64,000 nucleotides of DNA from a phage: sequence record PX393108.1; one strand, given 5' to 3'. The first letter of the stretch is position 1. Every line of letters begins with the position of its first letter. A model generated the notes under the pieces. That model made no database searches. It was not told the origin of the DNA and saw only the letters and a list, made by a program, of their open reading frames with translations. Both the position numbers and the translations under genes were made by a program. This document shows, in pieces, positions 6,922 to 14,664 of this stretch.

Positions 6922-7308
6922 TTATTCGAGGGAAAGAAGATATTTACTTTGATAAAACATCCCAGTAATATCATCTATCGTGCTTTGAATGGCTGGAGGC
7001 ATTTCTTTATAAATGCTGTTAGACTGGTCTAGTATGCGATCAATCATTTTAATTGTGTCGGTAGGAAGTTTACTGGCATCCGGAATTGACGGCGTGTATT
7101 TTCTACCAGAATACCCCAAATATTGCTCACCAAATTTATCAATCAAATCTGGTAACTCAGAGAAAATAAAATCGTATGCTTTGTGTCTAGCATAACTTTT
7201 AGTTTCAAAATGCGCAGAATGAAAATAAGCTTGTGCAGCCATTAATAAACCTAAGTATTCATCTGCCTTTGAAGGTTTTCCACTTTGTGAAAAGTCGCTG
7301 AATTTCAT
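6922..7308 (-). CDS. rI.-1: rI.-1-like protein
   Basis: 128 aa ORF immediately downstream of rI as in T4. Confidence 0.6.
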
Positions 7309-7598
7309 TCAGTCTCCAATTTAATGTTCATAATTCTAGCGTATGATTGTGCCATCTCCGCGCCTCGCTCTATACATTCAAAATCGGAAGAGCACGGGTC
7401 ATTTTTATAGGTCGTTCGCATAAAACTATAGAACTGTTCAGATGATTCTACGCTTTTATTTTCAAAAAGCATATAAACATGTCTAATACCAGATTCCATA
7501 AATTTATCAAAATGAGGATCGACATTCGCTTCAATCGGTGGAGATAAAGCAAACGCTAATCCTAGCATGGCAAATAGTGCCGTTGCTTTTAAGGCCAT
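7305..7598 (-). CDS. rI: lysis-inhibition regulator rI (signal-anchored periplasmic protein)
   Basis: 97 aa; N-terminal signal MALKATALFAMLGLAFALSPPIEA; matches recalled T4 RI sequence and position next to tk. Confidence 0.85.
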   Translation of the reverse strand: MALKATALFAMLGLAFALSPPIEANVDPHFDKFMESGIRHVYMLFENKSVESSEQFYSFMRTTYKNDPCSSDFECIERGAEMAQSYARIMNIKLETE

Positions 7599-8663: not shown

Positions 8664-8851
8664 TATTCTTCTACATGTTGTTTACGACCTTTCCTATCAA
8701 TAAAGGTATATTCAACGAATGTTCCAATATAGTCTTTATCTACATCATGAGGACTATTAATTGGGCATTTAGTACGGCAAATGCGTTCCCATTGACGAAT
8801 AATTTCCGCTTTGTTTTTAGGATCAAACGGATGCGGGTAATGTACTTTCAT
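8639..8851 (-). CDS. hypothetical protein
   Basis: 70 aa ORF. Confidence 0.4.
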   Translation of the reverse strand: MKVHYPHPFDPKNKAEIIRQWERICRTKCPINSPHDVDKDYIGTFVEYTFIDRKGRKQHVEEYCLKVTWL

Positions 8852-9302
8852 AATCCACCACTATCAAATCAATATCAGGAGTAAACATGTCGATTAATTT
8901 AGAAACCTTATCCCAATCACCGCCAGCAATACCACAACCTATGCGTGGAATATAAATTACTGGTTTAAACAAAAGGGTCTCTGCCTGTAGATTTAATTCT
9001 ATCATGCAATTTACTAAAGCACCATAATCAAGATTAGGACCCGGTTCGTATTGCGTATACAGGTTATAGCATATACCAAATCCCGTAGGACTATGTTTAA
9101 AAACAATAGACATATCGCCTAATTTATCGCGAGAACCGTACTCGGTAGTAGTTTTATCTATTTCTAAAATTTTGGGATAGGCTCTTGCTAATTGACCTGC
9201 CACACCTGAACCCATAGTATGAAAGCAGTTGCACCCGTGCGCAATAATATTACCTTGAAGAAATAGGGCGACAATATCGCCCTTGATATATTTTACAATC
9301 AT
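8823..9302 (-). CDS. macro domain protein (TARG1/OARD1/DarG-like ADP-ribose hydrolase fold)
   Basis: 159 aa; KGDIVALFLQGNIIAHGCNCFHTMGSGVAGQLA and IPRIGCGIAGGDW fit macro-domain ligand-binding loops. Confidence 0.65.
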   Translation of the reverse strand: MIVKYIKGDIVALFLQGNIIAHGCNCFHTMGSGVAGQLARAYPKILEIDKTTTEYGSRDKLGDMSIVFKHSPTGFGICYNLYTQYEPGPNLDYGALVNCMIELNLQAETLLFKPVIYIPRIGCGIAGGDWDKVSKLIDMFTPDIDLIVVDYESTLPASV

Positions 9303-9640
9303 CTAGTACTCAATCCTCGATTATAAGAATCTACCAAACGGTCAACCATTGAATGACAAGCGGCTTTATCTTTCTCCTCCGCAACTGAACATTCTAAGGT
9401 ATTCCACTTTTTAGCATATCGTTTTAATAAAGTATCGTTCTTGTATCTGCTTGATTTATCTCTTTCTCCGTCTTTATATGCATATATTAATTTCTGCGCA
9501 AATTCAGCTTGGCATGCTTTATTTTTCCCGCAATAATCCGCGGCAGTACGGTTTACATACTCTCTAATTTCAGTATATGATGTATTTGCTAACGCAGAAA
9601 ATGAAATTAATCCTATACATAAAACCAAAATTTTAGTCAT
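9299..9640 (-). CDS. secreted small Cys-containing protein (signal peptide)
   Basis: 113 aa; N-terminal MTKILVLCIGLISFSALA then four Cys. Confidence 0.55.
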   Translation of the reverse strand: MTKILVLCIGLISFSALANTSYTEIREYVNRTAADYCGKNKACQAEFAQKLIYAYKDGERDKSSRYKNDTLLKRYAKKWNTLECSVAEEKDKAACHSMVDRLVDSYNRGLSTR

Positions 9641-10178
9641 TTACTATTTCCAAAAGTTTATTATTTTTAAGGTAGTTAGCCTTTTCTAGGACTTCAGAAG
9701 CATATTTAGAACCTGCTTTAACATTCCATCCCGAATTATAAGAGGATATAGCCTTTCTTATATCGCCCTTATGTATATTTAACCAATAAGAAAGTTCAAT
9801 GTACGCCCAGGAAGCTGAATTGGACCGTTTATTCAACATTCTTTTTATTTCGGCATCGGTCATATTATAACCAAGTTCCTTAACTCTTGCTCGCATAGTA
9901 GGCAAATAATTTTGGAACATTCCGTAGGCATGATGCTTTGGTTTAGATTTTAAATTAACTCCGGCAGAGCTTTCTTGCCATAAAATAGCAGCCATTATAT
10001 GACCTAATCCGCTCTTATGGATATTTTTGTGTGTTTTATATTTTCCATCCTTAGAAAATTGTTCCCCGAATTGATACGCGTAACGCATGTTATCGAGTTG
10101 GACATTACTGAAAGTATGCTCGGAGCTATGTGCCATCATTGAAATGGCCAATAGACCAGCGAGTAGTGCTTTTCTCAT
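9633..10178 (-). CDS. periplasmic soluble lytic transglycosylase-like protein (SLT domain)
   Basis: 181 aa; signal peptide MRKALLAGLLAISMMAHS; SLT motif AAILWQESSAG...YGMFQ. Confidence 0.65.
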   Translation of the reverse strand: MRKALLAGLLAISMMAHSSEHTFSNVQLDNMRYAYQFGEQFSKDGKYKTHKNIHKSGLGHIMAAILWQESSAGVNLKSKPKHHAYGMFQNYLPTMRARVKELGYNMTDAEIKRMLNKRSNSASWAYIELSYWLNIHKGDIRKAISSYNSGWNVKAGSKYASEVLEKANYLKNNKLLEIVND

Positions 10179-10185
10179 GCTTACC

Positions 10186-10647
10186 TCATTGAGTTTTAAT
10201 TACTGCTTTAGAAGCCTTTCCCGGTAAACGACGACTATTGATAATTGCCATCCTGCACTGAAGTGACGGGTCTTTGAACTTCGCATTAGGTTTACAAACT
10301 GTAAATCCAAGCCAAAGATTTCCATCTGTGATTTCTAAACGCCCAGGACGATATTCAACCCCATCAATAAAATCCTCGTCAATGTCAGGACGCGGAGGCA
10401 TACTCAGGAATTCATTAACTTCTAAAACATGGTCTTTTATTTTATGGAATAATTCAAAAACATATGTCTCATCAATCTCCCGTTGAATTGCACGATCAAG
10501 AAGATGCTGAGAATATTTTAGATGAAACGATGAGACCCCTGCTGCTTTTGATGCCTCACGAATCTCATTGTTAATTTGACGAAACTCCGACTCAAAGTGA
10601 CGACGGAGCTTATTTCGACGGATAAAAACTTCTGTGTTGATAGTCAT
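10186..10647 (-). CDS. regB: RegB site-specific endoribonuclease
   Basis: 153 aa; matches recalled T4 RegB sequence and size; preceded by early promoter. Confidence 0.8.
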   Translation of the reverse strand: MTINTEVFIRRNKLRRHFESEFRQINNEIREASKAAGVSSFHLKYSQHLLDRAIQREIDETYVFELFHKIKDHVLEVNEFLSMPPRPDIDEDFIDGVEYRPGRLEITDGNLWLGFTVCKPNAKFKDPSLQCRMAIINSRRLPGKASKAVIKTQ

Positions 10648-10674: not shown

Positions 10675-10703
10675 ATTATACCACAGTCAAGAGGAAAAGT
10701 AAA
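10675..10703 (-). promoter_or_regulatory. T4-type early promoter (TTTACT-17-TATAAT) for regB
   Basis: -10 TATAAT at 10675-10680, -35 at 10698-10703, SD AAGAGGAGAATAAC. Confidence 0.55.

Positions 10704-14133: not shown

Positions 14134-14664
<531 letters not shown>

Follow-up and report, generated by a model that had tools for sequence, protein, structure and literature searches.

The vs.1-vs gene pair of a T4-like phage looks like a conserved exported module of a lytic transglycosylase-like protein and a small cysteine-rich partner

What is the function of a transglycosylase-like protein with an export signal, followed directly by a small cysteine-rich protein with another, in a phage that has a separate endolysin and a separate tail lysozyme? 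The question is raised by two genes at positions 9299-10178 of phage record PX393108.1, of which a stretch of 64,000 nucleotides (the window) was analyzed. The window is a T4-like (Tequatrovirus) genome, and the 1.9 kb around the locus are 98-99% identical to hundreds of Escherichia coli and Shigella phages. The two open reading frames are the known T4 genes vs.1 and vs (Vs is 96.5% identical to T4 Vs). Like their neighbors they lie on the minus strand, in the gene order of the T4 reference record: regB, vs.1, vs, tk.4, tk.3-tk.1, tk, rI.1, rI. An earlier note on this DNA, which missed these names, had described a periplasmic-type SLT protein and an adjoining secreted protein with four cysteines, each with a signal peptide. 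Both proteins are real: the SLT signature and, by heuristic, the signal-peptide patterns (cleavage motifs AHS before S and ALA before N) are present, and the count of four cysteines is right for mature Vs, a fifth being located within the signal peptide. We identify the cysteine-rich secreted protein as Vs and add that vs.1 and vs together look like a single, conserved exported module. The features of the pair are as follows.

9633-10178, minus strand: vs.1 coding sequence, 181 amino acids (T4 Vs.1, UniProt P13311 / Y06E_BPT4), predicted exported GH23/SLT-type lytic transglycosylase-like protein
9299-9640, minus strand: vs coding sequence, 113 amino acids (T4 Vs, UniProt P13310), annotated as valyl-tRNA synthetase modifier; predicted to be a small helical protein, exported and disulfide-bonded
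9633-9640, minus strand: vs.1 stop overlapping the vs start (ATGACTAA), read directly
9972-9974, minus strand: Glu69 codon (predicted catalytic acid/base of the WQESSAG motif), read directly; the residue is invariant in 27 homologs
10125-10178, minus strand: predicted Vs.1 signal peptide, residues 1-18 (MRKALLAGLLAISMMAHS, then S), by heuristic; site between AHS and S, position approximate
9587-9640, minus strand: predicted Vs signal peptide, residues 1-18 (MTKILVLCIGLISFSALA, then N), by heuristic; AXA site between ALA and N
9356-9532, minus strand: four conserved mature cysteines of Vs, C37/C43 (C-x5-C) and C84/C95 (C-x10-C)

The overlap of the vs.1 stop with the vs start implies translational coupling of vs to vs.1.

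The enzyme assignment of Vs.1 is supported by profile, predicted fold and catalytic residues. Residues 61-154 match the Pfam SLT domain PF01464 (E = 4.8e-5; 23.4 bits against a cut-off of 21.3), and the AlphaFold2 model, built on an alignment of 27 diverse homologs (40-84% identity), reaches a mean predicted local distance difference test score (pLDDT) of 88.4 and adopts the lysozyme-like alpha-helical fold of goose lysozyme and the Slt70 C-domain. The best Foldseek matches of this model are MltD, Slt, LtgA, a GH23 chitinase, phi6 P5 and T7 gp16, with E-values of only ~1e-2; searches of PDB chains with Vs.1, as a single sequence and as a profile, returned chance or weak matches only, the best being goose lysozyme (E 0.49 with the profile). 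Across the 27 homologs, E69 is invariant and S70 nearly so in motif I; G86, F88, Q89 and N90 are invariant in the GLMQ-like motif II (YGMFQN), as are Y147, N148 and G150 in the AYNAG-like motif III (SYNSG) and the conserved Tyr of motif IV, Y159. The catalytic glutamate, whose absence from an alignment with SLT enzymes would, according to the earlier note, have counted against its reading, is present: hhalign places E69 opposite Glu64 of E. coli MltE and opposite Glu505 of the Slt70 precursor (mature Glu478), with weak scores in both cases and single sequences as templates. No second carboxylate matching the Asp residues of goose-type lysozyme is conserved after this glutamate in the same alignment, which leans towards transglycosylase over hydrolytic lysozyme chemistry without proving it, and on its sequence Vs.1 is most likely enzymatically active. 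The enzyme reading is right but was already in print and in annotations: the SLT match of vs.1 orthologs was reported by Nolan et al. 2006, citing an earlier PSI-BLAST result of marginal similarity (E 0.012-0.74; PMC1524935), and some GenBank records already name the protein "transglycosylase SLT domain-containing".

Signal peptides were judged by a home-made heuristic together with family conservation. Both N-termini carry 1-2 Lys/Arg and no acidic residue, followed by 16-20 uncharged hydrophobic residues with small residues at -3/-1. Among the other real genes within the surrounding 9 kb, only RI (antiholin) has this pattern in common, and the N-terminal hydrophobicity of Vs is the highest of the neighborhood. 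Signal-peptide features are found in 18/18 diverse Vs.1 and 22/22 diverse Vs homologs, in which the sequence drifts while its character is kept, and the signal peptide is also retained in distant Vs.1 homologs from Ackermannviridae, Felixounavirus and a Vibrio phage. In one Vs clade, a lipoprotein lipobox (LSGC) replaces the ordinary signal peptide. The Vs homolog of this clade at L034:4549-4875 (L numbers denote loci of our survey; also L035, L038 and L050) starts MKKLFVLLVVFALSGCKV, a canonical lipobox, and a lipid-anchored periplasmic Vs would be expected there. From the heuristic and the conservation we strongly infer that both Vs.1 and Vs are exported. The SignalP table of Nolan 2006 covers novel open reading frames only, so that vs and vs.1 fall outside its scope, and full-length His-tagged Vs made in the E. 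coli cytoplasm went into inclusion bodies (PMC8076793).

The mature part of Vs is marked by its cysteines. Of the five in 113 amino acids, the four mature ones (C37, C43, C84, C95) are found in 22/22 diverse Vs homologs with spacings C-x5/6-C and C-x8-10-C, with C37, C43 and C95 flagged as invariant in the MAFFT summary; this spacing is typical of periplasmic disulfides, unlike CxxC metal sites. A low-confidence AlphaFold2 model (7-sequence alignment, pLDDT 59.6) has four helices, with each cysteine pair flanking a helix-helix loop. Vs matches phrog_1256 (E = 6.5e-40), and its relatives, all with the precomputed Pfam label PF26829, form a family confined to T4-like phage contigs. Searching 1.8 billion representatives with a T-even Vs profile (HMMER) gave 7 matches, all short or phage-like, and no bacterial relatives; a word-indexed search with a diverse Vs profile recovered PF26829 proteins only, several on phage-sized contigs of ~155-170 kb, only two of them under unexpected source names (a hypothetical protein of Acinetobacter baumannii and a Joint Genome Institute "sensor histidine kinase YesM"). 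PDB searches with the Vs sequence and profile returned nothing relevant, only chance or weak matches. Vs diverges much faster than Vs.1 (mean distance 0.65 versus 0.38). Late iterations of the Vs profile also caught a ~92-amino-acid protein ~2 kb downstream (E 1e-14 to 1e-17; L019:6317-6595, L027:6332-6607, L025:6833-7111), with an N-terminal hydrophobic segment and conserved cysteines. It may be a distant paralog, or it may have been drawn in artificially as the profile drifted on the hydrophobic N-terminus.

To follow the pair across phages, we surveyed 52 T4-like loci (50 viral loci with Vs.1 homologs and 2 annotated phages), building the Vs profile iteratively. A Vs homolog lies directly 3' of the Vs.1 homolog in 50 of them, with a gap of -8 to +4 nt, and the pair is kept down to 39% Vs.1 identity (Acinetobacter phages), Serratia and Klebsiella phages included; in a Pseudotevenvirus, the Vs homolog is displaced 1.1 kb further downstream. 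Vs is split into two open reading frames in L037 (4549-4876) and truncated in L017 (4541-4798), reflecting either frameshifts or sequencing errors or loss of vs with vs.1 retained. In 21/52 loci, a third gene follows vs with an overlapping start and encodes an exported protein, phrog_4957 (133-148 amino acids, signal peptide, two conserved cysteines, no Pfam match; e.g., L003:3321-3746, L012:4866-5267 and L046:4857-5303, with 18 further loci). This gene is absent from the present window. The distant Vs.1 homologs in Ackermannviridae, Felixounavirus and a Vibrio phage keep Glu-Ser and have 2-4 cysteines of their own, without a Vs neighbor; their Pfam SLT scores lie just above (L054, 21.4 bits) or just below the cut-off (L055, 19.2; L053, 19.7). 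The one at L054:2453-3070 (Salmonella phage heyday, Ackermannviridae) is a distant Vs.1-like exported SLT protein, and that at L055:2501-3049 (Escherichia phage tootiki, Felixounavirus) stands directly after rIIA-rIIB and is annotated as "putative lysin". In total, 2,085 phage records have Vs.1-like genes and 796 have Vs.

The position of the pair among its neighbors also bears on when the proteins are made and on their relation to the lysis genes. The relevant features are as follows.

10186-10647, minus strand: regB, directly upstream of vs.1
10184-10187, minus strand: GAGG Shine-Dalgarno of vs.1, overlapping the regB stop codon, 5 nt 5' of the ATG, read from the sequence
9299-9302, minus strand: ATGA in which the vs stop overlaps the tk.4 start, read directly
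10675-10703, minus strand: promoter-like site upstream of regB (TTTACT, 17-nt spacer, TG-TATAAT), consensus scan 10/12, extended -10
7305-7598: rI (antiholin RI)
14134-14628: endolysin e, T4-lysozyme family PF00959
27425-29152: gp5, T4-lysozyme family PF00959

The earlier note had placed the pair in an early operon, and this finds support in the promoter-like site 5' of regB, in the tightly packed or overlapping regB/vs.1/vs/tk.4 frames and in the RNA class of the T4 genes. The site at 10703-10675 is likely an early promoter feeding regB-vs.1-vs, although agreement with the consensus does not by itself prove this. For T4, the RNA of vs and vs.1 has been assigned to the early class and their protein to the "middle" class, and both proteins were found by mass spectrometry (PMC9697503 supplement). 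A GC-rich hairpin (AGGGCGATATTGTCGCCCT, then a T-rich tail) lies at 9265-9283, on both strands, just inside the 5' end of tk.4 and 16 nt past the vs stop. It is also found in four T-even-type loci (L009, L019, L027, L030), and its folding energy is in the lowest 5% in the locus of the window and in the lowest 4-18% in the other four. For RB49, a terminator was predicted between vs and tk.4 by Nolan 2006 (PMC1524935), and the regB-vs.1-vs unit may be ended or attenuated at the hairpin.

Superinfection exclusion and lysis inhibition, two of the roles suggested in the earlier note, gain no support from the present evidence. The one recorded phenotype of the pair is a fitness cost, which is worse in minimal medium. 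It comes from the HIDEN-SEQ preprint on T4 insertion mutants (10.1101/2025.11.20.689424), which compares lysogeny broth (LB) with M9 glucose. Both genes were classed as non-essential, with 30/32 TA sites hit in vs and 46/52 in vs.1, and the holin gene t as essential. Mean reads per gene and log2 fold changes from LB to M9 are as follows.

vs: LB 26.6, M9 5.0, log2 fold change -2.19 (adjusted p given as 0; the most depleted gene of the screen)
vs.1: LB 22.6, M9 11.9, log2 fold change -0.87 (p 0.0055, adjusted 0.155)
vs.7: LB 129.6, M9 112.8, log2 fold change -0.20
regB: LB 178.6, M9 403.0, log2 fold change +1.17 (p 0.049, not significant after correction)
vs.4: LB 265.2, M9 262.3, log2 fold change -0.02
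tk.4: LB 289.6, M9 275.0, log2 fold change -0.07
vs.3: LB 652.1, M9 626.2, log2 fold change -0.06
tk.3: LB 767.3, M9 753.7, log2 fold change -0.03

Insertions in vs and vs.1 are ~10-fold rarer in LB than those in their neighbors (130-770 reads), and both fall in M9. Insertions in regB rise in M9, the direction opposite to that of vs.1 and vs just downstream. In the same preprint, plating on M9 glucose was poor for a clean knockout of vs; its authors explain vs through the valyl-tRNA synthetase annotation and call the role of this modification unknown.

We consider it fairly probable that vs.1-vs encodes an early-transcribed exported enzyme and a small disulfide-bonded partner that act on the host wall during infection and are not the main lysis enzyme. 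As a plausible sequence of events, Vs.1 would be made from early transcripts and exported through Sec by way of a cleavable signal peptide, to become in the periplasm a small soluble single-domain enzyme of the goose-lysozyme/SLT fold (GH23, family-1-like). There, Glu69 would serve as the single acid/base cutting the bond between N-acetylmuramic acid (MurNAc) and N-acetylglucosamine of host peptidoglycan, most likely leaving 1,6-anhydro-MurNAc ends. Vs would be translated by coupling on the same mRNA and exported as well (as a lipoprotein in one clade), and its mature form would be a four-helix protein of ~95 residues stapled by two disulfides. We infer that the two proteins cooperate, physically or functionally, as one periplasmic module, joined in many non-T-even relatives by the third exported protein. 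The module would modify the wall of the infected cell in the latent period without being the terminal lysis enzyme, dispensable in rich medium and adding to phage fitness most clearly in minimal medium.

A role of Vs.1 as the main or a sufficient lysis enzyme is rejected: the gene is non-essential, its RNA is early, and it is separate from e and t. It lies ~4 kb from e and has no adjoining holin. T4 e mutants are not known to lyse. The earlier note had likewise kept both products apart from endolysin e and gp5 and had doubted that they serve lysis from within; e and gp5 are indeed separate genes of a different lysozyme family, PF00959, and the transposon data, with vs.1 non-essential and holin t essential, fit that view.

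The proposed location of Vs conflicts with its textbook role, which we take to be, from classical genetics and biochemistry, that of a ~10 kDa factor (tau) binding the cytoplasmic valyl-tRNA synthetase. Tau and Vs are the same open reading frame by annotation, and the predicted mature Vs of ~11 kDa comes near that size; this agrees with processing but leaves the meeting of Vs and the synthetase unexplained. An export signal and disulfide-type cysteines are unexpected for the partner of a cytoplasmic enzyme and, together with the lipobox clade, argue against a purely cytoplasmic Vs. The annotation may nonetheless be right, with a cytoplasmic Vs acting as tau to bind and stabilize the host synthetase, an N-terminus that does not serve export or a pool that is partly exported, Vs.1 as an unrelated accessory wall enzyme, and vs standing beside vs.1 merely through conserved T4-like gene order. 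We judge this unlikely. In its favor, the name stands in the T4 reference record and in hundreds of others, Vs has been described to bind the valyl-tRNA ligase of the host (PMC8076793), and vs is the strongest minimal-medium gene of the T4 screen, under conditions where amino-acid supply limits; an aminoacyl-tRNA role accounts for this phenotype no less well than one at the wall. The low vs.1 counts could reflect polarity on the coupled vs, leaving vs as the sole gene that matters. A distance-matrix (mirror-tree) analysis of co-evolution with RegB as control gave no signal specific to the pair (partial r of Vs.1 and Vs given RegB, 0.04; r of Vs.1 and RegB, 0.90). Gene order is conserved generally here, RegB being an equally conserved neighbor of Vs.1 (47 loci), and the adjacency of vs.1 and vs alone is therefore weak evidence. 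Foldseek of the poor Vs model against the PDB returned noise only, the muralytic chemistry of Vs.1 is a prediction, and the export of both proteins is predicted from heuristic and conservation. All of these points weigh against an exported module, the main arguments for which are the export signals, the cysteines and the phenotype that both genes share. A cytoplasmic Vs, in turn, is hard to reconcile with canonical signal peptides in every one of the 22 Vs homologs that drift in sequence as export signals do, with a clade that has a lipobox instead, with four conserved cysteines of the periplasmic-disulfide type, with the insolubility of full-length Vs in the cytoplasm, and with vs.1 insertions that show the same unusual low-fitness signature. 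The stronger proposal, that the vs frame does not encode a cytoplasmic protein but an exported disulfide-bonded partner of Vs.1 in a conserved periplasmic module (in many relatives together with phrog_4957) whose target is the wall of the infected host and which counts most when nutrients are limiting, is put forward tentatively, as a possibility still open to considerable doubt.

Two further explanations concern the relation of Vs to the enzyme and the enzyme itself. Vs could be a periplasmic inhibitor of Vs.1 (cf. Tsi3 for Tse3, or PliG/Ivy) that silences the enzyme until lysis, when Vs.1 would assist endolysin E. A muramidase gene followed by a translationally coupled gene for a small exported protein is the order of muramidase-immunity genes in type VI secretion systems, and the disulfide-stapled loop of Vs may recall the inhibitory loop of Ivy. 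In Kayvirus, the additional lytic enzyme Tgl is secreted, transcribed early and works together with the main endolysin (PMC7150955). With an antidote, however, vs.1 insertions should be neutral, yet they are as depleted as those in vs in LB and fall in M9, and we down-weight this model for that reason. Nor is vs.1 needed for lysis, which requires t and e; pair-specific co-evolution was not found, and Vs has no sequence match to known inhibitor families (22 Vs homologs compared with Pfam at E up to 10 gave scattered single chance matches and no support for LprI, PliG, Ivy, MliC or Tsi3). An inhibitory Vs is improbable in our estimate. Alternatively, Vs.1 might lack catalytic activity and be a scaffold or peptidoglycan-binding protein in which the fold has survived and the chemistry has been lost, as the marginal SLT similarity, here and in the earlier report, and the weak Foldseek E-values would allow. 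All family-1 motif residues, including the catalytic Glu-Ser, are nevertheless kept in Vs.1 homologs down to ~40% identity, and Glu-Ser is retained even by the distant homologs in other phage families. Such conservation is unexpected for a pseudo-enzyme and speaks against this explanation, to which we give very little weight.

The exported module that we favor can be compared with several known systems. With the family 1 lytic transglycosylases of GH23 (E. coli Slt70, MltE and MltC; Pseudomonas aeruginosa MltF and Slt) and goose-type lysozyme, Vs.1 shares Glu-Ser on the equivalent helix, the GLMQ-like and AYNAG-like motifs and, by its predicted signal peptide, the periplasmic location. It differs from them in an identity of just 13-21%, in being a minimal single domain of ~160 residues without lipid anchor, superhelical or LysM domains, and in a phage-specific N-terminal helix and hairpin (~25-58), partly deleted in the Acinetobacter-phage homologs. 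The type VI secretion pairs (Tse3-Tsi3, Tge-Tgi) and the inhibitors PliG, Ivy and MliC differ in that no resemblance of Vs to them was detected in sequence or fold (the fold search relying on a poor model) and in that the T4 transposon data misfit an antidote. Tgl of Kayvirus (Staphylococcus phage K-like) is likewise an extra muralytic phage protein with lytic transglycosylase motifs and a signal peptide, secreted by the host, early-like and distinct from the late endolysin (PMC7150955), but it acts in a Gram-positive host and is IsaA/SceD-related rather than a member of the GH23 family of Vs.1; it was shown to be lytic and proposed as a lysis helper, and no coupled small partner is described. 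Like signal-arrest-release endolysins and other muralytic phage enzymes exported ahead of lysis, Vs.1 is predicted to reach the periplasm by host Sec before lysis, with no need for a holin hole. The signal-arrest-release enzymes, in contrast, are main endolysins, tethered to the membrane by an uncleaved signal-anchor and freed on depolarization, whereas Vs.1 has a short h-region and a cleavage-type AXS/AXA site and is non-essential beside a cytoplasmic endolysin e and holin t.

If Vs is an exported partner of a wall enzyme, its minimal-medium phenotype would point to wall remodeling under nutrient limitation and away from tRNA charging, and "valyl-tRNA synthetase modifier" would be a wrong-frame assignment, an indirect effect, or an extract artefact of mixed compartments. 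The widely copied annotation would then need revisiting, as many T4-like records name vs after that of T4. Exported Vs.1-like transglycosylases, present in ~2,000 phage records from at least three groups of large virulent phages, represent an accessory function apart from the enzymes of entry and of lysis. Should the pair reading be wrong, the locus is no more than two known, annotated, non-essential T4 genes.

Names at this locus have also spread in other ways. In GenBank and UniRef, the names "RegB", "endoribonuclease" and "site-specific RNA endonuclease" are often given wrongly to Vs.1 homologs, apparently carried over from the neighboring regB, and Vs is frequently mis-named "valyl-tRNA synthetase". 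On the other side of the pair, tk.4 (8823-9302, minus strand), whose start overlaps the vs stop, encodes a protein with a macro domain (Pfam PF01661, E 1.3e-7). It is called AdfM in a 2025 preprint, which shows that knocking out tk.4 sensitizes T4 to the DarTG2 defence system.

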